Part shown: one piece after another, positions 3,443 to 59,969 of the stretch | Layout: each line of letters starts with the position of its first letter | How positions within the stretch are numbered: the stretch's first letter is position 1 | From: a virus | Lineage: Duplodnaviria; Heunggongvirae; Uroviricota; Caudoviricetes | DNA length: 64,000 bases | IMG/VR virus record: IMGVR_UViG_3300042691_025398 | Span: 55,814-119,813 of that record | Direction: 5' to 3' (one strand) | Notes under the pieces: model-generated | The model's database searches: none | What the model was told of the DNA's origin: nothing | Seen by the model: the letters and a program-made list of their open reading frames with translations, nothing else | Position numbers and translations under genes: made by a program

Positions 3443-3626
3443 GAAAAGTCAGGGTTTTTTGCCTAACTAAATATACGATCATGGAAACAAAGACAAATAA
3501 CTCAGTGCCTGTGCCAAAACCCAAGGAAAGCAACAAACCTCCCAATGAAAACGGTACGGTTCATGTTGACGAGTTTGTGCGAATACACGATCCAAACACC
3601 AAACAAGTATATCACGAGGGAAGAGC

Positions 3627-38591: not shown

Positions 38592-39881
38592 TTAATAACG
38601 GTATGTTTCTGGTTTGAAGGGACCTTGCACAGGTACATTGATGTACTCTGCTTGGGCATCAGTGAGGGTGGTAAGTTCTGCGCCCACATGTGCCAAATGA
38701 AGTCTAGCCACTTCTTCATCCATGTGCTTGGGCAGTAAATAAATCTGTCCAGGTTGATACCGGTCAGAATGTTGCCAAAGTTCAATCTGCGCCAACACCT
38801 GGTTGGTAAAACTGTTTGACATCACATAGCTTGGATGTCCTGTAGCACAGCCAAGGTTTACCAATCGTCCTTTAGCTAACACTATAATCTTAATACCGTC
38901 AGGTCGGGTAACATGATCAACCAAGGGCTTGATTTCTTGCCAATGCCACGATTGAATGCCGGCAATGTCAATCTCGCTGTCAAAGTGACCAATGTTACAC
39001 ACAATAGCATTGTTTTTCATGCGCAGCATATGATCACGATTGATCACATTGATGTTGCCTGTGGCAGTAACAAAGATATCTGCATGTTCGGCCGCATAGT
39101 CCATTGTGACCACACGATAGCCTTCCATGGCCGCTTGTAAAGCACAGATAGGGTCAATTTCAGTGATCCATACCTGTGCTGACAACGCACGTAATGCCTG
39201 AGCTGAACCCTTGCCTACATCACCATAGCCTGCTACCACAGCTATCTTGCCTGCGATCATGACATCAGTTGCACGTTTGATAGCATCAACAAGACTTTCG
39301 CGACAACCATACAGATTGTCAAACTTGGCCTTGGTCACTGAATCATTTACATTGATAGCTGGTAACTTTAGTGTGCCTGCTTGGACTCGTTCCACTAGTT
39401 TGTGAATACCAGTAGTGGTTTCCTCACTAACACCTACTATGCCAGGCAGCAGTTCTGGATGACGATCATGTACCCATGCTGTGAGATCGTGACCGTCGTC
39501 AAGCAGCATGTTGGGCAACCATCCATCAGGGCCTGACAGTGTTTGTTCAATACACCACCAGTATTCTTCTTCGGTTTCACCTTTCCATGCAAACACAGGA
39601 ATTCCACGAGCAGCTAAAGCCGCAGCCGCATGATCCTGTGTGCTGAAAATATTGCAAGAACTCCAGCGCACTTCGGCACCCAACTCAACCAAGGTTTCAA
39701 CTAGCACAGCAGTTTGAATGGTCATGTGCAAGCTGCCAGCAATGCGAGCACCTGCTAATGGTTTGGCATCACGGTATTTGTCTCGAACACTTATCAGTCC
39801 GGGCATTTCGTGTTCAGCAATGGCTATTTCTCTACGACCCCAGTCTGCTAGACCAATGTCTGCTATGCGATAATCTGTCAT
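38592..39881 (-). CDS. ahcY: S-adenosyl-L-homocysteine hydrolase
   Basis: N-terminal [26 protein letters not shown] is the canonical AhcY start. NAD-binding [10 protein letters not shown] block present. Length 429 aa. Confidence 0.9.
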
Positions 39882-40047
39882 TTATGAAAGTCCTTACGTT
39901 CGTTTCTGTTTGCTCTAGGTGGTGCCATTCTAGATTGCATTTCTGCTTGTACCATGCTGCTGATAAAATGGTGACGCTTGTTGGCATCAATAATCGTAGC
40001 GGCCTGCATTTTGCTGGGTTTGGATAGTTTAAAATGTTTGTTGGCTT

Positions 40048-40311
40048 TCATCGGCGTCCTTTGTTCCTTGAATTAGTTTCGGGCGGTTCACGCAGCAACC
40101 AGGATCTATTGACCTTGCCTGCTTGTATTTCATGCATGGTAGTGCTCAATGGTGTATTGCCTTGATTTACCATTGGTGCATGTCCGGATTTGATTTCTCT
40201 AATGCGTTGACTTAAAACTAACACAGCGTCAAACTGGTTACCCAATTTGTGCACTGTGTCCTCACTGCTTAAACTGATTGCATCTCTCTGTGGTAAATTA
40301 GACATTTTCAC
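40048..40311 (-). CDS. Hypothetical protein
   Basis: 87 aa. Confidence 0.3.
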   Translation of the reverse strand: MKMSNLPQRDAISLSSEDTVHKLGNQFDAVLVLSQRIREIKSGHAPMVNQGNTPLSTTMHEIQAGKVNRSWLLREPPETNSRNKGRR

Positions 40312-40394
40312 TCCAATTGTTTAGTTATGATTATAACACGGAAATGTCTTTCTCACAACAGATATGATAAACCCGCCACTAGGGCGGGTCAGGA

Positions 40395-42313
<1,919 letters not shown>

Positions 42314-42487: not shown

Positions 42488-43897
42488 TTAGAAACTCAAT
42501 TGACCTCTTAGCATCACTGCTCGATCGCCGTTCACACGACCACCTGACGAGCCAACTGCACTGTCAAATTTGGTGTCAACATAGTTCAACAAGAAACGCA
42601 CATTATCGTTCCAGAACCAGGTCACACCATAGGTCATTGCAGTTGCACGATTGGCTTTGCCTGCTGCTACTGTGATATCACTGGCGTCAAACTCGCTGGC
42701 ACGTACACCCACTTGCCAAGCACCTGTGCCACCTGCTGTGACTGCGGTGTTTGGTTTGATCCAGTTGAACACACCATTACGATAGTTGTGATTTTCACCA
42801 GTCAGGTTGTACACTGCTTGCACATAGTTACCTTGGATTTCACGATCAACACCAGTGGTGGGATCATATTTGAAGTTGAACATTTCACCTTGTACCTTGA
42901 GAGCACGATAGGCAAATGCAGCCTCTAGTCCTTGGCGTGTGCGTTCGGTCTCACCACTTAATGCACTGCCAGTGAACCAGCCACTGTGCAATCTTGCTTC
43001 AGTGCGGCCACTTGCTGGAGTTACGCCACCTTTGATGCTGCCTTGACTGTAAGCACCGCCTAGATGCACGACCATGTCTTTGTTCTGAATGATTTCTGCA
43101 ACGTTGGTAGTTAAACGACCAATTAAATCAACACCGTCAACTGTGGCATCCTTGTTGGCACGACCACGGCTGGCTGCAAGTGCATAGGTAAAGCCCACAG
43201 CAGGCACACCATGAATCATCACACCAGTTTCTTTAGCAGGAATAAACTCACCATCAGTGTTGCCCACTAGACTGCGTTCCATGAAGTCTATATTATTAGA
43301 GCTGGTTAATTGCTCAAGACTGAATGGCATCTTGAATGTACCAAACTGCAATTGTGCAGCTGGATTGGCATCATAGTTGACCCAGAACTCATCAATGGTT
43401 GTGGAGGTTGAACCAGCGCCTACATCATTGCCAAAGTTTGCCAGCAGCTGATATTTGAAGTCCTTGGCAATTTGTCCACGAATACCAAAACGTCCACGAC
43501 GCATTTCCATGGTGTTTGCGTAAGAGTCAGTGGTTTGACCTGTAGCGTAGTCTGGGCTGTAGTTTCTATAGTCCATGTGGATACGACCAGTGAACTGAGC
43601 AGTGGTGTTTCCATCCTTGCTCTTGATGCCAAGTCCATTCTCTAGAACTGAACCATCGTTGGCCTTGCTCACACGATAGTTGTTGTTGTCGCGAATGTCT
43701 TTGTCAATTCTTGACTGGTTGAACTGTTTATTTTCTTGCTTGTCACGATAGGTTTCTAGTTTAGAATCATATTCCTTCTGTGACAGAATGCCTTTTTCTC
43801 GCAAGATATTCAGAGTATCAACATACTCATCTGCGTGTGCTGCGCCAAAACAAAAACTCAAAGCGATAGCAACACTTAGTTTTTTAAGATTTTTCAT
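42488..43897 (-). CDS. Outer-membrane porin, likely phosphate-selective (OprO/OprP-like)
   Basis: Signal peptide. Alternating beta-strand composition. C-terminal aromatic residue (…RGQLSF). Co-directional and adjacent to pstS. Confidence 0.5.
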   Translation of the reverse strand: MKNLKKLSVAIALSFCFGAAHADEYVDTLNILREKGILSQKEYDSKLETYRDKQENKQFNQSRIDKDIRDNNNYRVSKANDGSVLENGLGIKSKDGNTTAQFTGRIHMDYRNYSPDYATGQTTDSYANTMEMRRGRFGIRGQIAKDFKYQLLANFGNDVGAGSTSTTIDEFWVNYDANPAAQLQFGTFKMPFSLEQLTSSNNIDFMERSLVGNTDGEFIPAKETGVMIHGVPAVGFTYALAASRGRANKDATVDGVDLIGRLTTNVAEIIQNKDMVVHLGGAYSQGSIKGGVTPASGRTEARLHSGWFTGSALSGETERTRQGLEAAFAYRALKVQGEMFNFKYDPTTGVDREIQGNYVQAVYNLTGENHNYRNGVFNWIKPNTAVTAGGTGAWQVGVRASEFDASDITVAAGKANRATAMTYGVTWFWNDNVRFLLNYVDTKFDSAVGSSGGRVNGDRAVMLRGQLSF

Positions 43898-43906
43898 TGT
43901 TTGTCC

Positions 43907-44932
43907 TTATTTCCAAATAGGCTGACCGTCGGCACCTTTTAACTGAGCCTTCCAGTTGTCCTGTACCAATTTTACTACACTATTTGGCAAATGTACATAC
44001 TCAAGTTCTTCACTCATCTTGCTGCCATTTTTAAATGACCAATCAAAGAATTTAAGAATAGCACGACCTGTTACAGCATCCGCTTGCTGACGGTGCATGA
44101 TGATGAAACTTGCACCTGTGGCTGGCCAAGCATCTTTACCTGTTTGCCAAGTTAGCAATTGATAAAAGCCAGGAGCATTTGCCCAATCAGCACCTGCTGC
44201 TGCGGCTTTAAATGTACTGTCATCTGGTTGTACAAAGTTACCATCACGATTTTTCAATTGTGCATGGGCAATTTTGTTTTTCTTAGCGTAGGCATATTCA
44301 ATGTAACCAAACGCACCTTTGATACGCTGCACCTGTGCAGCAACACCTTCGTTGCCTTTACCGCCTACACCAGTTGGCCATTTAACTGCTGTGCCTTCGC
44401 CAACTGCTTTTTGAAAATCAGCATTGGCCTTGCTCAAATAGTTGGTCCAAATGAATGTAGTACCTGAACCATCTGCACGATGTACCACAGTGATATTCAA
44501 AGCAGGAAGACTCACACCAGGATTTAGATCTGCTATTGCACGATCATTCCATTTTGTAATTTTACCAAGGTGAATGTTGGCAATCACGTCACTGGTTAGT
44601 TTAAGTTGCCCTGCCTCGATTCCTTCAAGATTCACTACAGGCACAACGCCTCCAATGATAGCTGGGAACTGCATCAAGCCTTCTTTGTCTAGTTCTTCAA
44701 TTTTCAATGGCATGTCTGATGCGCCAAAGTCCACGGTCTTGGCCTTGATTTGACGAATACCACCACCTGATCCAATTGATTGATAATTCAGGCCAATGCC
44801 TGTGGCTGCTTTATATGATTCAGCCCATTTTGAATAGATAGGATAGGGGAAAGTTGCACCTGCTCCAGTTAAATCAGCAGCTGATGCTGAAATAGCCAAA
44901 GAAGTTGCCAATAGTGCGAGTAATTTTTTCAT
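43907..44932 (-). CDS. pstS: Periplasmic phosphate-binding protein PstS
   Basis: Signal peptide, then GAGATFPYPIYSKWAESY...GSGGGI PstS signature. Confidence 0.85.
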   Translation of the reverse strand: MKKLLALLATSLAISASAADLTGAGATFPYPIYSKWAESYKAATGIGLNYQSIGSGGGIRQIKAKTVDFGASDMPLKIEELDKEGLMQFPAIIGGVVPVVNLEGIEAGQLKLTSDVIANIHLGKITKWNDRAIADLNPGVSLPALNITVVHRADGSGTTFIWTNYLSKANADFQKAVGEGTAVKWPTGVGGKGNEGVAAQVQRIKGAFGYIEYAYAKKNKIAHAQLKNRDGNFVQPDDSTFKAAAAGADWANAPGFYQLLTWQTGKDAWPATGASFIIMHRQQADAVTGRAILKFFDWSFKNGSKMSEELEYVHLPNSVVKLVQDNWKAQLKGADGQPIWK

Positions 44933-46932: not shown

Positions 46933-46965
46933 TACAATCCTATTACAATTTTGAAAATATTTTCA

Positions 46966-47290
46966 TGAAAAAGCCCGCCGAAGCGGGCTTACTATTTTGG
47001 GTGACAAGGCATAGTTGCCTCGGAGGTTAGGCTGCTAGAGCGAAAACCTCGTCGTTAGCTGCGTTTGCAGTTACTATTTTGCTTGGATTACGTCCATCGC
47101 CTTTCGTGTTGCCTTCTCTACTATCTCACCCTGTCGAAACCTTGACTGGCCCATCAAAAGCATACTTGGAAGATTTATTAACCGCTGACTCTTACTCTTC
47201 CCCAGCGTCACTATAGTATGCTTTTGGTGGACCAGGCGGGAGTCGAACCCGCGTCCAGAATGCCTTCGCTTTGAAGGAATTACAACAATA
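46966..47290 (-). ncRNA. ssrA: Circularly permuted (two-piece) tmRNA
   Basis: The tRNA-like 3' end GGACGCGGGTTCGACTCCCGCCTGGTCCACCA (reverse complement of 47225-47260) lies upstream of the coding piece. The coding piece starts GGGCCAGTCAAGGTTTCGACAGGG at about 47153 and carries the tag reading frame ..GCAAACGCAGCTAACGACGAGGTTTTCGCTCTAGCAGCCTAA (ANAANDEVFALAA*). A terminator hairpin lies at 46968-46990. The 5' boundary is approximate. Confidence 0.7.
46968..46990 (-). terminator. Rho-independent terminator of tmRNA
   Basis: aagcccgcttcggcgggctt hairpin plus U-run on the minus strand. Confidence 0.6.
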
Positions 47291-47648
47291 CTTGAATTTT
47301 ACATTTATTTTTGCAGCATGTCAAATTACTCAACCTAGTATTAATCTTCATCTATTTTATGATGGTAAGTTTCATACCATAGTGCAAATAACACACCAAG
47401 CAAGCATCCCGTAAATATGGATCCTAAAAGAACTCCAATGATAAAATACAATTGTTCTGTGCCCATTGTTATTTTTCTACCAATCTTTGTTCACAACGAG
47501 CTTGAATTTTATCTTCTCTGTGATGAATCAATACTGGCAGTATTTCTTCACATTCTTCTCTGCGAGCAAAAGATTTCCAATCACGCCATTCGCCATCTGC
47601 TGCTACTAAAACAACAAGAACCCAGACGTATGATCCCACATAAGTTTC

Positions 47649-48622: not shown

Positions 48623-49093
48623 TCAATATTTAATCTCGGGCAGGCTGTACAACACAAAGTTGTGCACCACCGGATTGTATCTAATCTTGAACACACAAAC
48701 ACCTGGTTCGTCTAGGTATCCATAAGTGCGTTTTACGCCACCGGACTTCAAACGATACACAGAATAATGATCTAAATCCGCCAAAGGCTCGTTATCCAAT
48801 TCCACACGTTCCACTATCACAGCACTTTCATGATCTGATCTTTCAAGAATTTCTATTCCAATCTGTGAGATTGATCTGGGGTCATGTTCAAAATCAAAAC
48901 GTTCTGTGTCTATGTTGACTTTTTCTCGATAGACATAGTCTCCGAGAATCAACCATTTGACGTTCTCGGGGGTGCCCTTATATTTTACGTAAAACGAAAG
49001 TTTTTGCAAGTTTTTTGGCTTGGACATATTGATCATAAACCTCTTGTTGTTCACGCAACATGCGCTCGGCCTCTTGGCCATCTCTATCACCAA
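48623..49093 (-). CDS. Hypothetical protein (start uncertain because it overlaps the upstream gene)
   Basis: 156 aa ORF. Overlaps the end of the B12-radical-SAM gene by about 115 nt, so an internal start is likely. Confidence 0.3.
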   Translation of the reverse strand: MVIEMAKRPSACCVNNKRFMINMSKPKNLQKLSFYVKYKGTPENVKWLILGDYVYREKVNIDTERFDFEHDPRSISQIGIEILERSDHESAVIVERVELDNEPLADLDHYSVYRLKSGGVKRTYGYLDEPGVCVFKIRYNPVVHNFVLYSLPEIKY

Positions 49094-50525
49094 AGCCCAA
49101 TTCGTGCTGTAGCTCTAGAAATCTTTTATATCTATTGAATCGAGTTTGATAGTTGTTGTCTGGATTGGTTGGAGTGTTCCAAAAGATATGACTCCATCCC
49201 TTGACCACATGCTCTCGCTCAAATTGATAATGATCACGCAGTCGATCGTCATTGGTCAGTGGCACTTGATCGCCTAGAGTGAACGGACTGGATATGCTCA
49301 CACTCAACAGTCCATCATGTGCCCAATGCCGATATCGGCGCAGTAGATCCAGTGTTTGTTCAAAATCTTGTTCAGTCTCCATGGGATAGCCGGCCATGAA
49401 CAACCAAATTTGCTTTATACCATTGTCATGTAACTGATGTGCAGTATAATCAATGTCAGCGTTGCTGAATTTTTTACGCATGTCATAGCGCACACGCTCG
49501 CTTCCGCTCTCAACTCCAATTATCCATTCCTGACATCCAGCTTCAGCCGCAAGAGCAAAATCTCTAGGCGGTTGATTTTCTCGTCCGCGAAAGATAGCGT
49601 AGCCACTGTAACGCAAGGTTCTTGGCAAATGATCAGCCAGATATTGATTCATTTTACGATAGTTTGGTATACTACCGTTTATCAAGTTACCGCTGAATCT
49701 AAAAAAGTCAATGCCTGTGCGTTCATGGCTTGCAATCATCTCTTTGGCCAGCAGTTCTCCGTCTTTGAATATGTACTTGGGCCATAGATGTTCCACATCG
49801 CAAAATGTACAGCGACGTACACAACCTTTGCTGTCAGTGATCAAGAGATACCTGTCACCAGGATTGAATCTTTGGTAAAGATCAAAATCATAATTGTGCC
49901 AGTCTGGAATAGGCACTGCATTGAGATCCGCGGAAGTCTGCGGAGGTGAATCAACCAGTCCATACATGTCCTGTTTAATCACATCAATGATAAAGCTTTC
50001 AGCATCGCCTGTAACCGCACAGTCAATCATGCCGCGTTCTACCAACCAACGAGCTCTTGAACCTGTGGCGTGTGTATCACCGGTGTACTCACCTTGAGTC
50101 AAGATTTCTAGACCACGGCCACCTGCTAGAATCTTCACACCAGGCAACCAACGTCTAATGCTATAACACATGAGTGTGAGATAGGTTTCACTCATGACAC
50201 TGAACACACTTAGACCAATCACTTCTGGATCAAACCGATCTCGGATGGCCAGCAGTTGTTTACGGTTCCATTTTAAAATGTCTATGAGTACTCTTCTTGG
50301 CAGCTTGCGTTCATTGCTGGGACCTTGACTGATATAAAACAGCAGTTCAGGCCAGTATGGTTTATCAATAAATTCCGCAGTGAATTCTGCCGCAAGGTCT
50401 ACTGGCACAGCAGCAATGCCTGCTTGATTAAGACAGGAACTGAGCAGTGCAGGAGCAGTGGCTGGCCAACCCGGAGTCTGATATGGCAAGCTGACTATTA
50501 CAATGTGTCGCTTGTCACTGGTCAT
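48978..50525 (-). CDS. Cobalamin-binding-domain radical SAM enzyme (class B-like)
   Basis: N-terminal Rossmann-like B12-binding region (HIVIVSLPYQ...) and radical SAM CX3CX2C (GCVRRCTFCDV). 515 aa. Confidence 0.6.
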   Translation of the reverse strand: MTSDKRHIVIVSLPYQTPGWPATAPALLSSCLNQAGIAAVPVDLAAEFTAEFIDKPYWPELLFYISQGPSNERKLPRRVLIDILKWNRKQLLAIRDRFDPEVIGLSVFSVMSETYLTLMCYSIRRWLPGVKILAGGRGLEILTQGEYTGDTHATGSRARWLVERGMIDCAVTGDAESFIIDVIKQDMYGLVDSPPQTSADLNAVPIPDWHNYDFDLYQRFNPGDRYLLITDSKGCVRRCTFCDVEHLWPKYIFKDGELLAKEMIASHERTGIDFFRFSGNLINGSIPNYRKMNQYLADHLPRTLRYSGYAIFRGRENQPPRDFALAAEAGCQEWIIGVESGSERVRYDMRKKFSNADIDYTAHQLHDNGIKQIWLFMAGYPMETEQDFEQTLDLLRRYRHWAHDGLLSVSISSPFTLGDQVPLTNDDRLRDHYQFEREHVVKGWSHIFWNTPTNPDNNYQTRFNRYKRFLELQHELGFGDRDGQEAERMLREQQEVYDQYVQAKKLAKTFVLRKI

Positions 50526-51889: not shown

Positions 51890-52453
51890 TCAACTTACAC
51901 CATGATTTCCATTTTGAAAACCCACTGACCCACCTTCTGCTTCTATACGTTTGATCACATCTTCAAACAGGATAGGGGCAAAGTCTGTTTGTTCTACGCA
52001 GACGCAATGATATCTAACGTCAACTGCACCATCTTTCATAACTCTGTTAGCATGAAGATGACCGTGTATGTTGGTACCAAAGCGACCCAGACTTTCTTCG
52101 TGTATGGGAATATGACTTAGTATCATTCCGTTCATAACATGGTATGCACGTAGTTCACGGAAGTGCTCTCTATATTCTGTGTCACGAAAGATATCGTGGT
52201 TACCACGTATCAGCACCTTGTCGCCGTTTAAACGAGAAAGTGTGGACAGAGCTCTGCGGTTGATAACAACATCACCTAGGTGATAGACTTTGTCGTTAGG
52301 CCGAACACGTTCGTTCCAAGCCTTGACCATAAACTCGTCCATCTCCTCGGGGTCGTCCCAAGGTCGCAGTTTTGTCACACCATCGTTGCGCATGAAGCGG
52401 CAAACGCCAGCGTGACCAAAATGCGTGTCACTGACTAAAAACACTGCTGGCAT
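51890..52453 (-). CDS. Calcineurin-like metallophosphoesterase
   Basis: FLVSDTHFGH ... HLGDV ... GNHD motifs. Confidence 0.65.
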   Translation of the reverse strand: MPAVFLVSDTHFGHAGVCRFMRNDGVTKLRPWDDPEEMDEFMVKAWNERVRPNDKVYHLGDVVINRRALSTLSRLNGDKVLIRGNHDIFRDTEYREHFRELRAYHVMNGMILSHIPIHEESLGRFGTNIHGHLHANRVMKDGAVDVRYHCVCVEQTDFAPILFEDVIKRIEAEGGSVGFQNGNHGVS

Positions 52454-52908: not shown

Positions 52909-53322
52909 TCAGTTGTCAAGCGTCAGAGCTTGCAGCATGCGGTTCTTGACCAAGAGATTGGGCGCTCTATATCCTTCAGTATCTTGAAAGCCCATGATCA
53001 CGCCAACTTCGCAAACAGCTCCACTGCGACAAACTCCAGCATGACAGTGCACAATCACGTTCATGCTTTGATCCAAGGCATGCTTCAAAAGTTTTACCAA
53101 CTGATTGGCCTGAAGCTCGCTGCATCGCCACTCCTCGTTGATGCTGTAATCATTGGCTTCGATGTCAAGAAAACAAAACTGATGTGTTTCACGAAACTGA
53201 TACTTGGGCGTTGGGAATTCCACTCCAGGATCCACGATTTGAATCAACATGCTGTTTATGCCAGCATCGTAGTGCCAACCTTGTTGAATTTCCTTTAATG
53301 ATATGTTTTGAATCCAGGGCAT
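52909..53322 (-). CDS. Dual-specificity/tyrosine protein phosphatase (CX5R)
   Basis: VIVHCHAGVCRSGA P-loop. Confidence 0.75.
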   Translation of the reverse strand: MPWIQNISLKEIQQGWHYDAGINSMLIQIVDPGVEFPTPKYQFRETHQFCFLDIEANDYSINEEWRCSELQANQLVKLLKHALDQSMNVIVHCHAGVCRSGAVCEVGVIMGFQDTEGYRAPNLLVKNRMLQALTLDN

Positions 53323-53574: not shown

Positions 53575-53652
53575 TGGTACCCCCTCTCCGATTCGAACGG
53601 AGAAAACTGCTCCTTTTGAGAGAGCCGACTTTACCAATTTGTCCAAGGGGGC
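53575..53652 (-). tRNA. tRNA, anticodon CAA but short variable arm (atypical), CCA encoded
   Basis: Cloverleaf. Acceptor GCCCCCT/AGGGGGT. Anticodon stem GCTCT/GGAGC. Loop CTCAAAA. T-loop TTCGAAT. Confidence 0.55.
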
Positions 53653-53654
53653 AT

Positions 53655-53733
53655 TGGTCTCTCTGGCTGGATTCGAACCAGCGATCTCTGGTCCCCCAGA
53701 CCAGCACTCTAGACCAGACTGAGCCACAGAGAG
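53655..53733 (-). tRNA. tRNA-Pro (GGG)
   Basis: Anticodon stem CTGGT/ACCAG. Loop CTGGGGG. T-loop TTCGAAT. CCA encoded. Confidence 0.6.
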
Positions 53734-53734
53734 A

Positions 53735-54109
53735 TTAACGTAAACATCTAGCTCGTGCTTCGATCATGTGATCAACATTGCCTTTAACCACTACATTGGT
53801 ATAGGTATCAACAGTGCCACTAGCATGATCATACACTCGGTTATCCACTGCATGATAGGTACGCACACGTTCGTCACTGGCACGATAGCGTTCGGTGTCT
53901 TTGTGAAAGTGCCGCTCTACTCTAGCGCGACACACTGCTAGCGCATTTTTTCGATTGTCTTCTCTGCTGCGACTAGCAGTGCCATTGGCCTGTATGCCTG
54001 TGGGTTCATGGATACAACGGCAACAATTCTGATGTTTGTTTCGATGTTGACCACCACCACCGGTGCTGGAGAACCATTCAAATCTAAATTGGTCTTCTGT
54101 GATTTTCAT
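53735..54109 (-). CDS. arfB: ArfB-like peptidyl-tRNA hydrolase (GGQ motif, RF-1 domain protein)
   Basis: FSSTGGGGQHRNKHQNCCRCIHEPTGIQANG...SRSREDNRKNA parallels the release-factor/ArfB GGQ catalytic loop (GPGGQHVNKT..AVRLTH.PTGI...ERSQ..N). Basic C-terminal tail. Start trimmed to the internal Met MKITEDQF. The ORF track extends to 54211. Confidence 0.65.
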   Translation of the reverse strand: MKITEDQFRFEWFSSTGGGGQHRNKHQNCCRCIHEPTGIQANGTASRSREDNRKNALAVCRARVERHFHKDTERYRASDERVRTYHAVDNRVYDHASGTVDTYTNVVVKGNVDHMIEARARCLR

Positions 54110-54384
54110 TATAGATTCCTCATGCTCAACAGCAGTGCAGTTAAGTATTTTTCTTCTCGAAATGCAATAAAATGTCTGTGATCTTTCTTGGGCATGGTGT
54201 ACCATCCCCATACAGGATTTTGTATTCTATCCTGATTCCAGATAGACCAACCTTCGCCATGCTCCCAATATAATTTGTGACGCAGCTCTACAGATTTTAT
54301 CACTTCCCAACGCCAGGTTAATGCATAGATTAATCCTGCACGACCCAATTGATATCTTTTGTCTAGCTTGATAATCTTCATCAC
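54109..54384 (-). CDS. Hypothetical protein
   Basis: 91 aa. Its stop overlaps the arfB-like start. Confidence 0.3.
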   Translation of the reverse strand: MMKIIKLDKRYQLGRAGLIYALTWRWEVIKSVELRHKLYWEHGEGWSIWNQDRIQNPVWGWYTMPKKDHRHFIAFREEKYLTALLLSMRNL

Positions 54385-54395
54385 TTCCTCTATCT

Positions 54396-54480
54396 TGGTG
54401 CGACTAGCCGGAATCGAACCAGCACGACCGAAGTCGGGAGATTTTAAGTCTCCTGTGTCTACCTATTTCACCATAGTCGC
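54396..54480 (-). tRNA. tRNA-Leu (UAA), type II
   Basis: Anticodon loop CTTAAAA. Long variable arm. CCA encoded. Confidence 0.7.
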
Positions 54481-54485
54481 ATGTT

Positions 54486-54562
54486 TGGTGCGCCAGAGGG
54501 GAGTCGAACCCCTAAAATCCAGTTTCTAAGACTGACACGTATACCAGTTCCGTCACCGGCGC
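54486..54562 (-). tRNA. tRNA with anticodon UAG and short variable arm (atypical)
   Basis: Anticodon stem TCAGT/ACTGG. Loop CTTAGAA. T-arm AGGGG-TTCGACT-CCCCT. CCA encoded. Confidence 0.55.
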
Positions 54563-54568
54563 AATGTT

Positions 54569-54644
54569 TGGTGCCAACTCCCGGGATCGAACCAGGTTCC
54601 ATGCGTCTTCAGCGCACCGCAATGACCACATTTGCTAAGTTGGC
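54569..54644 (-). tRNA. tRNA-Phe (GAA)
   Basis: Loop CTGAAGA. T-loop TTCGATC. CCA encoded. Confidence 0.65.
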
Positions 54645-54645
54645 T

Positions 54646-54720
54646 TGGTGCATCGTGAGAGGGTTGAACTCCCGACCTTGGCCTTGTAAGGGCCCTGCTC
54701 TACCACTGAGCTAACGATGC
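54646..54720 (-). tRNA. tRNA-Val (UAC)
   Basis: Loop CTTACAA. Acceptor GCATCGT/ACGATGC. CCA encoded. Confidence 0.6.
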
Positions 54721-54724
54721 AGAA

Positions 54725-54958
54725 TTATTTCCAAGTGAGCACAAACAAACAACGATCTTTATCCCATTTGAATGCAACACCTAGATGATAGTATTCACCA
54801 CTATCGTTCCATGCCCATGAAGCATGATGTGAACCAACATGACGCTCTAGCCAGGACTGCACAAGATCTACACCTTGTATCCAATCCAGCTGAGGTAAAG
54901 AAGCAGTTGGCCACGGTATAGTGGCAGTATAGACAAAAGCATGTCGATCAACCAGCAT
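54725..54958 (-). CDS. Hypothetical small protein
   Basis: 77 aa ORF between tRNAs. Confidence 0.3.
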   Translation of the reverse strand: MLVDRHAFVYTATIPWPTASLPQLDWIQGVDLVQSWLERHVGSHHASWAWNDSGEYYHLGVAFKWDKDRCLFVLTWK

Positions 54959-54970
54959 GCTTGTATTTAA

Positions 54971-55049
54971 TGGTCTCGAAGGTGGGATTCGAACTCACGA
55001 TCTCCTGCTCCCAAAGCAGGCGCTTTAAGCCAGACTAAGCTACTCCGAG
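54971..55049 (-). tRNA. tRNA-Pro (UGG)
   Basis: Anticodon stem CCTGC/GCAGG. Loop TTTGGGA. Confidence 0.6.
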
Positions 55050-55132
55050 ATTAACTGTTTTGATGTATGTGATACAGAAATAAAAATACCATTACGATAA
55101 CTATGATTGCCCCATGATAGTTCTCCTTGTAT

Positions 55133-55207
55133 TGGTAGGGGATGAGGGACTCGAACCCCCGCATGGCGGAATCAAAATCCGCTGCCTTACCAACTTGGCG
55201 AATCCCC
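55133..55207 (-). tRNA. tRNA-Gln (UUG)
   Basis: Stem GCGGA/TCCGC. Loop TTTTGAT. Confidence 0.65.
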
Positions 55208-55215
55208 AACTGCTC

Positions 55216-55290
55216 TGGCCCGACCGGCAGGAATCGAACCCACATTCTGGAGGTAGAAGCTCCATGTCCTATCCATTGAACGACGGTCGG
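55216..55290 (-). tRNA. tRNA-Arg (UCU)
   Basis: Stem TGGAG/CTCCA. Loop CTTCTAC. Confidence 0.65.
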
Positions 55291-55364
55291 TTAAATCGAG
55301 AAGTCTTGACCTTGTGTTAAACATGATTCAGTGGCCTAACAACAGCGGGACAAGACATATTACT

Positions 55365-55440
55365 TGGAGCGGGTGAACAGGTTCGAACTGTCGACATTCT
55401 GCTTGGAAGGCAGACGCTCTACCAACTGAGCTACACCCGC
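55365..55440 (-). tRNA. tRNA-Gly (UCC)
   Basis: Stem TCTGC/GCAGA. Loop CTTCCAA. Confidence 0.65.
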
Positions 55441-55447
55441 ATTACTC

Positions 55448-55522
55448 TGGAGCGGATAGTCAGGTTCGAACTGACGACCTACACGTTGGCAACGTGTCGC
55501 ACTACCACTGTGCTATATCCGC
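55448..55522 (-). tRNA. tRNA-Gly (GCC)
   Basis: Stem ACACG/CGTGT. Loop TTGCCAA. Confidence 0.65.
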
Positions 55523-55528
55523 TTATAT

Positions 55529-55996
55529 CTACAATGCACCATTGGCTATTCGGTCTGCTGCATAACTTGCAGCAAATGCCCGAGGTTTCACCAAGGGAAT
55601 CACATTACATGTGCCACGAATGTAACCAATAGCTTGACTGATCACACAGCTAGAACCATGCTCTTCATTGGGGTTGATATCCAAGTGCACTTCTACTGGA
55701 AAGTCTCCCATGATTGGTGCTAGACGTTGAAACATGTCACTCACACGATACACTTCATTCATCAATCGCATGGCTGGCTTACTGGCCTTTTGATCGTAAT
55801 CGCGTTCCTTGGTGATTTCACCAAAGATTTTACAACCATTGTTGCCATTCACATGCACTACCACTGCCACGGTGTATTCTGCAAACCATACACCTTTTTC
55901 TCTAAATCGCACACTGTCTGCGCCAAGATAAACTTTTGTACCCGGACCGCAGTTGTCGATATATTGTTTTACTTCATGTAAGTTTATCTTAGGCAT
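55529..55996 (-). CDS. Hypothetical protein within the tRNA array
   Basis: 155 aa ORF. No confident motif. Confidence 0.35.
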   Translation of the reverse strand: MPKINLHEVKQYIDNCGPGTKVYLGADSVRFREKGVWFAEYTVAVVVHVNGNNGCKIFGEITKERDYDQKASKPAMRLMNEVYRVSDMFQRLAPIMGDFPVEVHLDINPNEEHGSSCVISQAIGYIRGTCNVIPLVKPRAFAASYAADRIANGAL

Positions 55997-56003
55997 TGTT
56001 TCC

Positions 56004-56078
56004 TCTCTTGGTTGGCCGGTCCGGAGAGATTCGAACTCCCGACAGCTGGTTTCGAAGACCAGAACTCTTCCGCTGAGC
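56004..56078 (-). tRNA. tRNA-Arg (UCG)
   Basis: Stem CTGGT/ACCAG. Loop CTTCGAA. Confidence 0.65.
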
Positions 56079-56085
56079 TACGGAC

Positions 56086-56173
56086 CGAATTTTTTGGCGG
56101 AGAGTATAGGATTCGAACCTATGCGCCCATTTCTGAACGACAGTTTAGCAAACTGCTGCCTTAACCACTCGGC
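56086..56173 (-). tRNA. tRNA-Ser (GCU), type II
   Basis: Loop TTGCTAA. Long variable arm. Confidence 0.65.
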
Positions 56174-56219
56174 CAACTCTCCATTTGTTTTATTTTACTA
56201 CGATGATCATTATTGATCA

Positions 56220-56293
56220 AGAATTACTTGGTGCCCCCTGACAGAATCGAACTGCCAATCCCGGGTTACAAAGCCGGTGTTATACCATTTAAC
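56220..56293 (-). tRNA. tRNA-Thr (UGU)
   Basis: Loop TTTGTAA. Confidence 0.55.
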
Positions 56294-56299
56294 TAAGGG

Positions 56300-56389
56300 G
56301 GCAAAAACTGGCGGAAGCGGTGAGATTCGAACTCACGGAGCATTTCTACTCGTCTGTTTTCAAGACAGGTGCAATCAACCGGACTCTGC
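56300..56389 (-). tRNA. tRNA-Ser (UGA), type II
   Basis: Loop CTTGAAA. Long variable arm. Confidence 0.6.
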
Positions 56390-56398
56390 CACACTTCC

Positions 56399-56605
56399 TT
56401 AACTGGGAATTATTTTTGGAATATAGGGTACATTGCGCGGCCCATGCCGCTGTTCGAATAACTGTCGTGCTTCGGTTAGATCTCGAGCATACACTCGATC
56501 TTTTACTTCACCTTGCGGTGTTCTTACTGTGGTTTCATACATTGGCATCATAATCTCCTTTGGTGCTGATGGTGGGGATTGAACCCACGGCTTCCGCCTT
56601 ACCAA
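56399..56605 (-). CDS. Hypothetical small protein
   Basis: 68 aa ORF between tRNAs. Confidence 0.3.
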   Translation of the reverse strand: MVRRKPWVQSPPSAPKEIMMPMYETTVRTPQGEVKDRVYARDLTEARQLFEQRHGPRNVPYIPKIIPS

Positions 56606-56635
56606 GGCGGTACTCTACCACTGAGTTACATCAGC
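56561..56635 (-). tRNA. tRNA-Thr (GGU)
   Basis: Stem CCGCC/GGCGG. Loop TTGGTAA. Confidence 0.65.
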
Positions 56636-56636
56636 A

Positions 56637-56711
56637 TGGTGGTGATAATTGGTAATGATCCAATCTCCTCGCCTTATGAAGGCGGTGCGCATCCATCTAC
56701 GCCATATCACC
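56637..56711 (-). tRNA. tRNA-Met/Ile2 (CAU)
   Basis: Loop TTCATAA. Unusual T-loop ATCATTA. Confidence 0.5.
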
Positions 56712-56717
56712 AGAATT

Positions 56718-56792
56718 TGGTAGCGAGTAGTGGGATTGAACCACTGACCAATGCGTTATCAACACACTGCTCTTCCGCTGAGCTAACTCGCC
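56718..56792 (-). tRNA. tRNA-Ile (GAU)
   Basis: Loop TTGATAA. Confidence 0.6.
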
Positions 56793-56794
56793 AT

Positions 56795-56868
56795 TGGCGC
56801 CGGAGGAGGGAATCGAACCCCCACTAACGGTTTTGGAGACCGCCGCACTGCCATTATACTACTCCGAC
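56795..56868 (-). tRNA. tRNA-Trp (CCA)
   Basis: Stem GCGGT/ACCGT. Loop CTCCAAA. Confidence 0.6.
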
Positions 56869-56884
56869 TTTAAACTATGTTAAT

Positions 56885-56962
56885 TGGAGCATCGGGCTGG
56901 ATTCGAACCAGCGAATCGAAGGTTTTGCAGACCCCGCCATTAGGCCTCTCTGGTACCGATGC
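56885..56962 (-). tRNA. tRNA-Cys (GCA) (tentative)
   Basis: Loop CTGCAAA. T-loop TTCGAAT. Confidence 0.5.
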
Positions 56963-56965
56963 ATG

Positions 56966-57259
56966 TTAATCTTCTTCGTCGTCAAACTCACCTGAGTTAT
57001 GACAATAGCCTTTCAATGTACCTACGAGCATTTCTCGATCTGTGATTACAAACACATTGTATTCACTCCGACGAAAAGGTTTCATTTTAGGAGGTGGTCG
57101 ACGACTATCTGTATCATAAGGCAAAGGTTCAACTTTGACATTACCTGAATCTTCGTATGTCTGTGCCACACGCCCTATGATAATTCTATTGTTATGACAG
57201 GTCAATACAGTGGAACCTGTTTGAATAGTTGTTCCTAAAATGTCTTTTAAGCCTGTCAC
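56966..57259 (-). CDS. Hypothetical protein
   Basis: 97 aa. Confidence 0.3.
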   Translation of the reverse strand: MTGLKDILGTTIQTGSTVLTCHNNRIIIGRVAQTYEDSGNVKVEPLPYDTDSRRPPPKMKPFRRSEYNVFVITDREMLVGTLKGYCHNSGEFDDEED

Positions 57260-57287
57260 AAAACCTCCATTAAAGTTTTGGTTATGT

Positions 57288-57363
57288 TGGGGTGACTGAA
57301 GGGAGTCGAACCCTCACTGTACGGAATCACAATCCGGGGCACTACCATTATGCTACAGTCACC
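57288..57363 (-). tRNA. tRNA-His (GUG)
   Basis: Loop TTGTGAT. Extra 5' G(-1). C73 discriminator. Confidence 0.65.
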
Positions 57364-57364
57364 A

Positions 57365-57629
57365 TCAAATTTTGTCAAGTGGAATTTCTTTCACTGGACT
57401 GTCAATTTTGCTCTCTACTACAAAGACATCAAACATTGTGTCATCTTCTGGATGACATATTTCTTCTAAAAAAGTTTCATTAAACTTTGTACGCCAGTGT
57501 AGAAATTTCTGTTTGTCAGCATCCCACCTGGCCACACTGGCATTGCGACATCTTCCTGCATAATATGCACCATGCTCAAGTTCAGACTTGGCAATTTTAG
57601 AAGTGTAATTGTATGGACTATGAATCATA
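57365..57629 (-). CDS. Hypothetical protein (trimmed so it does not overlap tRNA-Ala)
   Basis: The ORF track extends to 57832, through the tRNA at 57645-57720. The internal start MIHSPYNY avoids the overlap. Confidence 0.3.
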
Positions 57630-57644
57630 ACATTTCCTTGTAAG

Positions 57645-57720
57645 TGGTGGAGGTTATCGGACTCGAACCGATCACCCTCTGCTTGCAAAGCAGATGCTCT
57701 CCCAGATGAGCTAAACCCCC
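57645..57720 (-). tRNA. tRNA-Ala (UGC)
   Basis: Loop TTTGCAA. G3:U70 identity pair in the acceptor GGGGGTT/AACCTCC. Confidence 0.7.
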
Positions 57721-58211
57721 GTTTGAATAATTGTACGCAATTGATCAAGACTTTGATCAACATCACCATGGTGTAATATACCATGACCTCCGGCTGCCTG
57801 CCATTGCTCGATGTTGCTGCGACGGTCATCAATCAAGATATCACCAGGCCGAGCCCAAAGCTGTTTGTCATGACTGTAAGGACCAAACCAGATGGGTATG
57901 TCACCAAAATGTCTTTGCTTCCATGTGACCTTGTCCTGGAATGCCCAGGGAAAATCATTGTCTTGTGGCACAGCAGTTAAGAATCTAACATCTCGGTTGG
58001 TTTGATCTGCAAGATCCAACACTGTGGCTACCAAGCGCCTGGCATCAGGCATTAGTGGCAAGTCACGATAAAATCTTGGAAAGGCACGTAACTTGATCCA
58101 GTCATGATCCGGCCAACGTTCATTGGCCGAATGACTGCGTCCAATAATCTTTGATGCTTCTGCATCAAAGTCGGCTACCACACCATCCATGTCTAGATAG
58201 ATTGTTTGCAT
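57711..58211 (-). CDS. HAD-superfamily 5'(3')-nucleotidase-like hydrolase
   Basis: IYLDMDGVVADF motif I. 166 aa. The 3' end overlaps the tRNA-Ala 5' end by about 10 nt. Confidence 0.5.
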   Translation of the reverse strand: MQTIYLDMDGVVADFDAEASKIIGRSHSANERWPDHDWIKLRAFPRFYRDLPLMPDARRLVATVLDLADQTNRDVRFLTAVPQDNDFPWAFQDKVTWKQRHFGDIPIWFGPYSHDKQLWARPGDILIDDRRSNIEQWQAAGGHGILHHGDVDQSLDQLRTIIQTGV

Positions 58212-58225
58212 ACTTTCCTTTTGAT

Positions 58226-58301
58226 TGGCTCCAGCGGTTGGGATCGAACCAACGACAAACGGATTAACAGTCCGCTGCTTCTACCTCTGAGCTACGCTGG
58301 A
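58226..58301 (-). tRNA. tRNA-Asn (GUU)
   Basis: Loop CTGTTAA. Confidence 0.65.
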
Positions 58302-58308
58302 ATTGATT

Positions 58309-58401
58309 TGGTGGGTGTCCACGGATTCGAACCGCGAATGTTTACCACGAGGGACCGGATTTACAGTCCGGTGTAGCACACGCCATAGCTACAAGACACC
58401 C
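58309..58401 (-). tRNA. tRNA-Tyr (GUA), type II
   Basis: Loop CTGTAAA. Long variable arm. Confidence 0.65.
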
Positions 58402-58406
58402 AAATA

Positions 58407-58772
58407 TTATTTTTTCATTGCTTCCATGTCGGCCAGCAAGCTGGCCCACTGAATCTCTGGATTTGCACCTTTATCGAATCCATGCAAGGCCACAAGAGTT
58501 TGATCTGCACCTTCTGGTACTTTGAAATAGATGCTGGCATAGGTACAGTCAAAGTCGTCGTCTGTGTCATGTGAATACCAGGGATGACTTGTTACCCATG
58601 CAGGAAAATAATCTTCCCGATTGCCGCCACCATTGCGGGTGTAAACTACAATGTAGCCATCTTCCATGTAGACATTTCTAAAACGACCAAAATCCGCACG
58701 AGTGGCGCCAAGAATTTCCAATAAACGATCAGTGTCTGGGTTCATACCGAACACAGTGTTGTACAAGCTCAT
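58407..58772 (-). CDS. Hypothetical protein
   Basis: 121 aa. Confidence 0.3.
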   Translation of the reverse strand: MSLYNTVFGMNPDTDRLLEILGATRADFGRFRNVYMEDGYIVVYTRNGGGNREDYFPAWVTSHPWYSHDTDDDFDCTYASIYFKVPEGADQTLVALHGFDKGANPEIQWASLLADMEAMKK

Positions 58773-58790
58773 GTTGCCTCCAGATTGCTG

Positions 58791-59204
58791 TTATTTGAGA
58801 TCTTTGGAATCCACACAGGTGCCGCCTTTGAACACATAGATATCTGAGTCTATGCGGATTTGTTCAAACACGTGATTGTTCACACAAATATATGGATCTT
58901 TGTAATTTTGAGTCCAAGAATACACTCCAAAACCTATACCAGCCAGCACCATGAGTATGGGAATATACTTTAGATACTTTACTATTTCTGGCATCGCACT
59001 CAGTATTTGAGGCAGATTTTTGAGCAATTCTTTCATGCTCTTATTTACTACTTTTGGCGGTCCCAAGGGGTAACGATCCCCTTCTTTCAGCGTGACAGGC
59101 TGATGTGCGTCCATGAACACTTTGGAACCTGTGTCTGGTGCTCTGCGTCCCGCGGCGGTAATTATAGTCTGTAGTAACACCCACCGACCCTCCACCCGCT
59201 CCAC
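58791..59204 (-). CDS. Hypothetical membrane protein (start uncertain)
   Basis: 137 aa. A hydrophobic segment. The 5' part lies in a GC-rich spacer that may be non-coding. Confidence 0.3.
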   Translation of the reverse strand: MERVEGRWVLLQTIITAAGRRAPDTGSKVFMDAHQPVTLKEGDRYPLGPPKVVNKSMKELLKNLPQILSAMPEIVKYLKYIPILMVLAGIGFGVYSWTQNYKDPYICVNNHVFEQIRIDSDIYVFKGGTCVDSKDLK

Positions 59205-59318
59205 AACCGGGACCGTTCTCGCATTGCCAGCGCACTTTCGGTTTGAAGTGTACCACCCGTGCTTGTCAAGGCACTTCTCATCCTCCGGGTCAGAGTATCC
59301 AGTGACGCTGGAACGTTT

Positions 59319-59394
59319 GGTACACCGTACGGGATTCGAACCCGTCTTTACGCCTTGAAAGGGCGTTGTCCTAACCGGATAGACGAACGGTGCA
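59319..59394 (-). tRNA. tRNA-Glu (UUC)
   Basis: Stem ACGCC/GGCGT. Loop CTTTCAA. Confidence 0.65.
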
Positions 59395-59701
59395 TAAAAT
59401 TAATGCTAACAAGGAACTGACTGTTACATGATGCCGAAGTCATGGTCGCATCAAACCCTTGCTGAACCCTTGAGGGACGATCCGCATTTGATCGTTTTAT
59501 TCTAAATTTTGAATCAGCCACTTGTTTTCCACTCAAGCCCTGAAACTGAGTTGTTACCCTGTCCATCCCTTTTATTCTCTGTCTGTGTGCAGAGGGATAC
59601 TGCCTATCAGATTCTGGGTTACCCCGCTAACGGTTTTCTGCCACCGGACCTCTATCGCTAGTCAAACGCTACTTTTAGGAGAGTAGTAACCGGAACTGGT
59701 T

Positions 59702-59773
59702 GCGGGAAACAGGAATCGAACCTGATGTCTTTGGCTTATGAGACCAACGAGTAAACCGTTTCTCCCTCCCGCC
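59702..59773 (-). tRNA. tRNA-like gene with CAU anticodon (Met/Ile2-like, atypical D-arm)
   Basis: Acceptor GCGGGAG/TTCCCGC. Anticodon stem TTGGT/GCCAA. Loop CTCATAA. T-loop TTCGATT. D-arm irregular. Confidence 0.45.
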
Positions 59774-59824
59774 ATTGTTTTGCAATATTTCTAGTGTAAC
59801 AAAAAGAATTTTATTGGTCAACCA

Positions 59825-59897
59825 TATAAAAACACACTATCCTAGATAACCTCTTTGGGACGGACCTTAACCGTTCAAAATGTGTTTTTATATGGTG
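59825..59897. repeat. Long-stem hairpin element, copy 1 (CCATATAAAAACACAC ... GTGTTTTTATATGG)
   Basis: 14-bp inverted arms flank about 44 nt. The right arm abuts the CCA end of tRNA-Lys. Confidence 0.6.
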
Positions 59898-59969
59898 GGG
59901 CCACTGAGATTCGAACTCAGGCCTGACGGATTAAAAGTCCGCTGTCTTAACCGCTTGACTATAGCCCCA
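59894..59969 (-). tRNA. tRNA-Lys (UUU)
   Basis: Stem GCGGA/TCCGT. Loop CTTTTAA. Confidence 0.65.

Follow-up and report, generated by a model that had tools for sequence, protein, structure and literature searches.

The 64,000-nucleotide stretch of DNA analyzed here (the window) comes from a large uncultured freshwater phage and spans positions 55,814 to 119,813 of IMG/VR record IMGVR_UViG_3300042691_025398. Within it, inside a tRNA gene array and near one end of it, lies a gene for a 124-residue protein with the GGQ motif of peptide chain release factors (RFs), which we term the mini release factor (mini-RF). An initial annotation had proposed an ArfB-like peptidyl-tRNA hydrolase at this position, citing the segments TGGGGQHRNK, IHEPTGI, and SRSREDNRKNA; all three are present in the translation, which begins MKITEDQFRFEWFSSTGGGGQHRNKHQNCCRCIHEPTGIQANGTASRSREDNRKNA and is encoded on the minus strand. 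The gene and its parts are as follows.

53735–54109, minus strand: mini-RF gene, 124 codons plus stop; identified from its open reading frame (ORF), the Pfam RF-1 domain, a match to positions 210–337 of the 347-position RF1 model, alignments to the Protein Data Bank (PDB), an AlphaFold2 (AF2) model, and Foldseek
54047–54055, minus strand: GGQ catalytic motif, residues 19–21; read from the sequence and conserved across homologs
53900–54109, minus strand: domain 3 region, residues 1–70, comprising three strands, the GGQ loop, and a long helix (residues 49–68); from AF2 secondary structure and alignment with RF1 domain 3
53738–53872, minus strand: domain 4 region, residues ~80–124, with strands at 83–86 and 91–94 and helices at 103–108 and 113–123; from AF2, aligning with RF1 ~320–356
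54117–54121, minus strand: Shine-Dalgarno sequence GAGGA, 7 nucleotides 5′ of the mini-RF ATG (54109); read from the sequence

A longer reading of 158 residues from an ATG at 54211 is mechanically possible; against it, 104 of 127 fetched homologs are exactly 124 residues long with the same start methionine. Comparison with an 84%-identical relative gives a dN/dS (ratio of nonsynonymous to synonymous substitution rates) of 0.17, and synonymous changes are saturated against more distant relatives, where dN is just 0.19–0.29. From these values we conclude that mini-RF is a real gene under purifying selection.

Profile searches place the protein among release factors. The Pfam RF-1 domain (PF00472), which the initial annotation had named as a check, has a gathering score of 35; mini-RF reaches 56.6 bits (E = 3e-15) and aligns to positions 6–115 of its 116. 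The NCBIfam RF1 model scores 65 bits over the full length of mini-RF (model positions 210–337 of 347) and the RF2 model 54 bits, both below the equivalog cutoffs of 400 and 370 bits, respectively. A phmmer search of the PDB returned 45 release-factor chains, the best at 3e-13; mini-RF residues 6–118 align to Streptococcus mutans RF1 233–356, with the segment of helix 7 and the switch loop shortened by deletions of 6 and 5 residues. In the C-terminal 45 residues, these PDB alignments pair a domain 4 motif, ERVRTYHAVDNRVYDHASG, with RF1 ERIRTYNFPQNRVTDHRIG. Domain 1 and domain 2 are absent: no PCRF domain was detected in the protein by Pfam scan, and with domain 2 the codon reader (PxT/SPF tripeptide) is missing. 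Nor is domain 2 hidden upstream, because in relatives a tRNA gene ends 10–25 nucleotides before the mini-RF start codon, or the DNA there holds an unrelated ORF.

A family profile built from 45 diverse mini-RF homologs gave a graded picture, scoring 117 bits against RF1 (RF1 191–325), 107 against RF2, 73 against PrfH, 65–68 against C12orf65, 41 against ArfB, and 22 against ICT1; the ArfB match is confined to profile positions 9–35, the GGQ loop. AF2 run on the same 45-sequence alignment yielded a model with a predicted local distance difference test score (pLDDT) of 92.1, which replaces an earlier run on a shallow alignment (pLDDT 72). The predicted protein consists of three strands, the GGQ loop (between strands 1 and 2), a 20-residue helix, a 14-residue connector, and a small alpha/beta domain. 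When this model was compared with the PDB using Foldseek, the top 45 matches were RF1/RF2 or mitochondrial mtRF1/mtRF1a chains, PrfH ranked 46th, and no ArfB or ICT1 chain appeared among the top 50; a separate Foldseek search agreed. Conservation extends across both domains. The GGQ residues (G19, G20, and Q21) do not vary among 20 close homologs; among the 45 diverse homologs G20 is invariant and G19 and Q21 are at least 90% conserved, and R83, Y85, and D94 of domain 4 are invariant across diverse homologs, down to 28% identity.

Mini-RF is thus an RF1/RF2-derived protein cut down to domain 3, which carries the GGQ motif, and domain 4, with a shortened helix-7/switch-loop connector between them. 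RF1 and RF2 are its best match in sequence, profile, and fold over the entire protein, and they share with it the GGQ loop, the HxPTGI strand, the RSQxxN helix start, and the RTYxxxxxRVxDH motif of domain 4. The differences are that mini-RF has neither domain 1, which interacts with RF3, nor domain 2, which reads stop codons through PxT/SPF, that its helix 7 and switch loop are ~11 residues shorter, and that it is phage encoded and set among tRNAs. By score and by architecture it falls outside the ArfB, PrfH, and RF1/RF2 families, and it belongs solely to the RF-1 domain superfamily. Proteins of its family are labeled "peptide chain release factor 1" by annotation pipelines, a name we regard as misleading.

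The close subfamily has a further sequence peculiarity. Four cysteines (Cys29, Cys30, Cys32, and Cys60) and seven histidines (His22, 26, 34, 67, 69, 86, and 95) are invariant in it, several within the motif HQNCCRCIH (window about 53930–54025); these positions are just partly conserved in distant members, and RF1 has Ala, Val, and Ile at these strand positions. A metal or redox site at these residues is possible.

The ArfB comparison of the initial annotation survives in part. Mini-RF, like ArfB (YaeJ) and ICT1, is a small stand-alone GGQ protein of the RF-1 superfamily with no stop-codon reader, and it sits in a tRNA array; it is therefore reasonable to propose that it hydrolyzes peptidyl-tRNA, or acts in rescue, independently of the codon, and by analogy mini-RF may share with ArfB and ICT1 a hydrolysis of peptidyl-tRNA that depends on the ribosome and is independent of the codon. 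Its sequence and architecture are another matter. The NCBIfam ArfB equivalog (NF006718), whose cutoff is 100 bits, scores 12.4 (E = 0.09) and covers residues 2–27 only. The ~27-residue insertion in the GGQ domain of ArfB-type proteins is missing, pairwise alignment requires a matching gap, and the IHxPTGI...RSxxxN segment runs uninterrupted, as in RF1/2. Nor does mini-RF have the flexible linker and basic C-terminal helix with which ArfB and ICT1 probe the mRNA channel: the net charge of its last 40 residues is 0, versus about +13 for Escherichia coli ArfB, and in place of a basic tail there is a predicted folded alpha/beta domain (pLDDT >90), namely the domain 4 of RF1/RF2. The same holds for the family, the last 40 residues averaging −1.5 across 115 close homologs and no C terminus among 99 distant short homologs reaching +8. 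The targeting mechanism of mini-RF is probably not ArfB-like.

Two other codon-independent systems invite comparison. PrfH is a codon-independent RF paralog coupled to RNA repair through RtcB (PMC9304027). It resembles mini-RF in lacking domain 1 and stop-codon reading while keeping the GGQ domain and part of domain 4, and in its linkage to conflict and RNA repair (PMC9304027, PMC6514570), genes for RtcB, RNA ligases, kinases, or phosphatases being found at some mini-RF loci. It differs in its domain-2-derived rRNA-recognition domain (PrfH residues 2–98), which mini-RF does not have; accordingly, the PrfH model (TIGR03072) scores mini-RF at 47.4 bits against a cutoff of 166.65 and matches at model positions 102–181, the GGQ domain, only. 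The RtcB operon partner is not conserved either: it was not found in the scanned part of the window, and of 33 dereplicated relatives just one has it within 2.5 kb. The second system, C12orf65 (mtRF-R), is likewise a short GGQ protein without a codon reader and matches the family profile at 65–68 bits, but it has a basic C-terminal extension and no RF domain 4, and its substrates, approached jointly with MTRES1, are split large subunits.

Phages are already known to encode uncharacterized, truncated proteins with an RF-1 domain, in several architectures. BFVD holds a 164-residue protein with domain 3 and domain 4 from an uncultured phage, GGQ-only proteins of 64–83 residues from Acinetobacter phages 133 and Henu6, a 131-residue RF-1-domain protein from Pseudomonas phage phiPsa347, and an RF-1 protein from Mycobacterium phage Phabba; two PHROG families annotated as "RF-1 domain peptide chain release factor" are weakly similar to mini-RF (PHROG 3122, E = 5e-5; PHROG 20323, E = 2e-6). 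An RF-1-domain gene is also the core coding sequence of one class (G1) of mycobacterial tRNA arrays, where Pth and transfer-messenger RNA (tmRNA) occur as well (PMC5966550). These proteins, the mycobacterial G1 gene included, share with mini-RF a truncated GGQ protein that has been annotated and left uncharacterized; they differ in that many consist of domain 3 only, whereas the mini-RF family has a fixed arrangement of domain 3 plus domain 4. A survey of the RF family by Burroughs and Aravind from 2019 does not mention phages (PMC6514570), and we found no publication on a phage mini-RF of domain 3 and domain 4. The association of RF-1, Pth, and tmRNA with tRNA arrays had been noted descriptively, and the coupling of PrfH to RtcB is established.

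Having defined the protein, we asked how widely it occurs. We delimited the family as proteins of about 120–145 residues that align over their full length and lie on viral contigs, a description that fits mini-RF itself. A homology search recovered 474 homologs, on metagenomic contigs of up to 170–375 kb; those listed are 69–100% identical and almost all 124 residues long, and more than 100 clusters of homologs have exactly this length. An exhaustive HMMER search of representatives clustered at 50% identity gave 2,408 matches, the best ~100 of which are mostly stand-alone proteins of 120–145 residues covering the whole of mini-RF, with full-length RFs appearing only near E ~1e-10. With the close alignment, and hence counting motifs of the close subfamily, we confirmed 396 mini-RF loci in IMG/VR, and found relatives in three contigs, all from metagenome-assembled genomes, among 185,579 species genomes (one genome per species). 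The close subfamily is essentially phage-only, and capsid, portal, and terminase genes adjoin distant members. Among 50,697 GenBank phage records there is no close relative: tblastn identities reach at most 33%, all to full-length RFs, which occur in some huge phages, and megablast matched solely the tRNA-Leu of PA5oct-like phages. A plasmid search returned full-length RFs only, plus one unannotated 40% match beside CRISPR genes on a Bosea megaplasmid.

A few relatives of 180–232 residues hint at how the family arose. They share the signature WFSGTGxGGQHRNxxxCCR, lack domain 1, and keep the PxT motif, although some may be gene fragments. Such domain-1-less proteins (P0153 and others) score 185 bits against RF1 versus 50 against PrfH, which rules out a PrfH ancestry for them. 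The existence of RF1-like relatives without domain 1 suggests that mini-RF arose from the RF1 lineage by stepwise domain loss.

Mini-RF lies among tRNA genes. ARAGORN finds 28 of them together with one tmRNA, in line with the tmRNA and about 27 tRNAs reported by the initial annotation. The array and the elements bordering mini-RF are listed here.

53575–59968, minus strand: tRNA array of 28 ARAGORN tRNAs that together serve all 20 amino acids, each encoded on the mini-RF strand; Rfam confirms 25
54109–54384, minus strand: 91-residue ORF with its stop codon overlapping the mini-RF ATG (ATGA); from the ORF list, with no Pfam or PHROG match
53655–53733, minus strand: tRNA-Pro(GGG), 1 nucleotide past the mini-RF stop codon; ARAGORN, with an Rfam tRNA score of 62 bits
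53575–53652, minus strand: tRNA-Leu(CAA), the final gene of the array; ARAGORN, below the Rfam gathering score
53547–53569, minus strand: intrinsic-terminator-like hairpin (10-bp stem with 6 GC pairs, T-run) that ends the tRNA/mini-RF transcription unit

The local order is tRNA-Leu(UAA), the 91-residue ORF, mini-RF, a 1-nucleotide spacer, tRNA-Pro(GGG), tRNA-Leu(CAA), and the strong terminator hairpin, making mini-RF the last ORF of the array. The overlap between the two ORFs raised the candidate of a split, two-component release factor, which we rejected: the 91-residue ORF is strain specific, being present solely in the identical contigs L001–L004, has no family matches, and is replaced in the 84%-identical relative (L010) by a tRNA-Leu directly upstream of mini-RF. 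Within the array, three tRNAs fall below the Rfam tRNA gathering score (Leu-CAA, Tyr, and Asp; 53575–53652, 58309–58401, and 59055–59129, all on the minus strand), and the Leu(CAA) and Leu(UAG) genes, at 77–78 nucleotides, are short for class II leucine tRNAs. The array also contains an RNaseH_like (PF04308) protein gene (55529–55996, minus strand), which several relatives keep within their own arrays (14 of 94 loci).

This placement recurs. Of the 36 loci of the close subfamily left after dereplication below 88% protein identity, 30 contain tRNAs, 23 have one within 60 nucleotides of mini-RF, and 16 have mini-RF flanked by tRNAs on both sides. The flanking tRNAs always lie on the same strand as mini-RF, and the typical spacing is 10–25 nucleotides upstream and 0–8 nucleotides downstream (L007, L010, L021, L024, L029, L034, L065, and others, the downstream spacing also in the window). 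Such a "tRNA-punctuated" gene would be co-transcribed with the array and its mRNA freed by tRNA processing; after RNase P cleavage, we infer, the mRNA would have hardly any sequence beyond its stop codon.

Two enzymes encoded downstream of mini-RF in the window are recurrent protein-coding neighbors.

52909–53322, minus strand: DSP/PTP-type phosphatase (Tc-R-P/PTP-SAK-like); Pfam, with a homolog within 6 kb in 29 of 94 loci
51890–52453, minus strand: calcineurin-like metallophosphoesterase; Pfam, with a homolog in 20 of 94 loci

Counted without a background control, and thus suggestive only, the families encoded within 2.5 kb of mini-RF in 33 dereplicated close loci comprise DUF2828 plus DUF7788 (8 of 33), AAA_33 kinase (6), DSPc/Tc-R-P/PTP-SAK phosphatase (6), Metallophos (4), RNaseH_like (3), HNH (3), Tad3 (2), and RtcB (1). 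Among the RNA-repair or tRNA-modification genes near mini-RF in other phages, the RtcB ligase (E = 7e-126) lies at 8823–10010 of L022; another lineage, L012, encodes an Rnl-type RNA ligase (PF09414) and an AAA_33 kinase near mini-RF (3020–4033 and 6004–6474), and in L005 a TilS-like PP-loop ATPase (7171–7785) lies directly upstream of the tRNA pair preceding mini-RF. HAD_SAK_2 and RlaP "RNA repair" domains occur among the distant loci. The neighborhood has a suggestive flavor of RNA end-healing, sealing, and anti-defense. The ~473-residue protein with DUF2828 and DUF7788 is the commonest protein-coding neighbor (L021 4462–5883 and seven other relatives; L012 1–722).

What might such a protein do? 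To our knowledge, all characterized bacterial-type GGQ factors carry a ribosome-selecting device—domain 2 in RF1/2, the rRNA-recognition domain in PrfH, the basic tail in ArfB/ICT1. Mini-RF proteins lack all three devices, although the family is abundant, conserved, and linked to tRNA arrays. Hydrolysis by GGQ proteins such as RF1/2, ArfB, and PrfH is ribosome dependent, and GGQ domains are not autonomous hydrolases, so an off-ribosome, Pth-like activity is unlikely. Since without domain 2 no codon can be read, mini-RF would have to act codon independently. Judging from its sequence, we lean toward the reading that mini-RF performs ribosome-dependent, codon-independent peptide release from ribosomes with a vacant or unreadable A site, alongside the phage's tRNA supply. 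Under this reading, transcription of mini-RF together with the phage tRNAs would be followed by its release from the precursor through tRNA processing, and the protein would enter the A site without reading a codon; its GGQ loop would reach the peptidyl-transferase center as in RF1/RF2, with domain 4 replacing the missing anchor near the decoding center. Peptides would thereby be released from ribosomes idling during infection, for instance when nucleases of the host have depleted tRNAs or cleaved mRNA or rRNA, and ribosomes and peptidyl-tRNAs would be restored alongside the phage's own tRNA supply. In this way the protein would add to that supply against host defenses aimed at tRNA, mRNA, or rRNA. 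Mini-RF would then work like a rescue factor of the ArfB/PrfH type while standing outside both families.

Several points weigh against this reading. The tRNA arrangement is limited to the close subfamily (0 of 21 distant loci), the linkage is partly inherited synteny among related phages rather than a set of independent events, and the protein-neighbor counts have the limit given above. ArfB needs its tail for ribosome binding (PMC3950681), and mini-RF has neither that tail nor domain 2. With a connector ~11 residues shorter than that of RF1, domain 4 may not span to the decoding center while the GGQ motif is in the peptidyl-transferase center. Finally, an unregulated codon-independent release factor could be toxic.

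A more ambitious version of the proposal, which we regard as tentative and on present evidence doubtful, is that mini-RF represents a phage-only class of release factor, built of domains 3 and 4 only, that frees ribosomes stalled at sense codons or damaged decoding sites. Its tRNA-punctuated transcript would then belong to a counter-defense island of tRNAs and RNA end-healing and sealing enzymes that neutralizes host immunity acting by cleavage of tRNA, mRNA, or rRNA. If true, this would give bacterial-type GGQ factors a fifth architecture and a new way of choosing a ribosomal substrate. An active mini-RF would also pose the question of what minimal determinant brings a GGQ domain into the peptidyl-transferase center, and it would add a translation-rescue arm to the emerging view of phage tRNA arrays as a counter to tRNA-targeting defense. 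At 124 residues the protein is small enough to be tractable in reconstituted release assays and cryoelectron microscopy, and it is a potential tool for codon-independent release. If inactive or redundant, mini-RF would be an ordinary auxiliary gene mis-annotated as "peptide chain release factor 1."

Other explanations account for parts of the same evidence. Domain 4 is retained and strongly conserved though its usual partner, domain 2, is gone, and the structural matches of mini-RF include ArfA-RF2 and BrfA-RF2 complexes. Both observations would fit an adaptor-dependent factor, in which a host or phage partner that senses stalled ribosomes binds the beta-sheet edge of domain 4 that domain 2 covers in RF1/2, much as ArfA and BrfA extend the RF2 sheet. 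We consider this unlikely, as no partner gene conserved beside mini-RF emerged: the overlapping 91-residue ORF is strain specific, the immediate neighbors in relatives are tRNAs, and even the top protein neighbor, DUF2828/DUF7788, occurs in just 8 of 33 loci.

Quite improbable in our estimate is that mini-RF acts on split large subunits, hydrolyzing peptidyl-tRNA trapped on 50S and so recycling tRNAs, as mtRF-R does with MTRES1. The family profile does match C12orf65 at 65–68 bits, mini-RF has no decoding-site reader, and linkage to tRNA genes fits a tRNA-recycling role; nevertheless, over its full length mini-RF is closer to RF1/RF2 than to C12orf65, it keeps a domain 4 that has no known role on 50S alone, and neighborhood scans revealed no RqcP/MTRES1-like partner.

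We see a slim chance that mini-RF is a modulator rather than a rescue factor—a decoy or competitor in the A site, a sink for the GGQ methyltransferase PrmC, or an agent that, by interfering with RF1/RF2 of the host, alters termination or shuts off host translation. Truncated mimics of host factors are common in phages, the GGQ domain that PrmC recognizes is retained, and the structural matches include an RF1-PrmC complex (2b3t). That the catalytic glutamine and the RF motifs around it are strictly conserved argues instead for catalysis, and no feature of the context points specifically to shut-off.

Slimmer still is the chance of a true ArfB-type rescue factor whose C terminus senses the empty mRNA channel of non-stop ribosomes and complements the phage tmRNA. 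The size of mini-RF, its stand-alone GGQ domain, and the presence of a tmRNA in the same 13-kb region are what one would expect of it. Against these stand the 12.4-bit score of the ArfB model (cutoff 100) and the restriction of the ArfB profile match to the GGQ loop, the missing ~27-residue insertion, a C-terminal charge of 0 versus about +13 in ArfB, and a C terminus formed by a folded RF domain 4 rather than a basic linker and helix. A pseudogene reading, with mini-RF as the decaying remnant of a phage RF1 gene that was formerly full length, has next to no likelihood: longer RF1-like relatives lacking domain 1 alone (P0153 and others) and the full-length RFs of some huge phages would allow for it, but it is contradicted by the conservation data—a dN/dS of ~0.17, more than 100 clusters of exactly 124 residues, and a diverse family of 120–145 residues down to 28% identity—as well as by the gene's own Shine-Dalgarno sequence and start codon and its confident predicted fold.

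The module proposed by the initial annotation also included the phage tmRNA, whose gene lies beyond the phosphatase and the metallophosphoesterase from mini-RF.

46936–47338, minus strand: permuted (two-piece) tmRNA of betaproteobacterial type with the tag ANAANDEVFALAA; ARAGORN, with Rfam scores of 163 bits (RF01850) and 142 bits (RF04321)

The related contig L010 carries the same tmRNA and tag. In the window the gene is 6.4 kb downstream of mini-RF, behind the DSP-type phosphatase, the metallophosphoesterase, a radical-SAM gene, and others. Neither SmpB nor Pth was detected in the window by tblastn, a weak test that used E. coli queries. Given this distance, the unrelated genes in between, and the lack of an SmpB or Pth match in that weak test, the initial proposal of a self-contained ribosome-rescue module is too strong.

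The wider gene content offers clues to the host. The window encodes a 5′-3′ exonuclease and a GroEL that is 70% identical to proteobacterial GroEL; together with the betaproteobacterial-type tmRNA, this GroEL leads us to infer a betaproteobacterial host. GroEL, S-adenosylhomocysteine hydrolase, a carbamoyltransferase, and a 515-residue radical-SAM protein map to 38592–42017 (minus strand), 19661–21202 (plus strand), and 48978–50525 (minus strand), and the radical-SAM protein is conserved beside the array in relatives. A phosphate-selective porin O/P (469 residues) is encoded beside a PstS-like periplasmic binding protein (341 residues) at 42488–44932 on the minus strand; the pair is host-like and conserved in L010.

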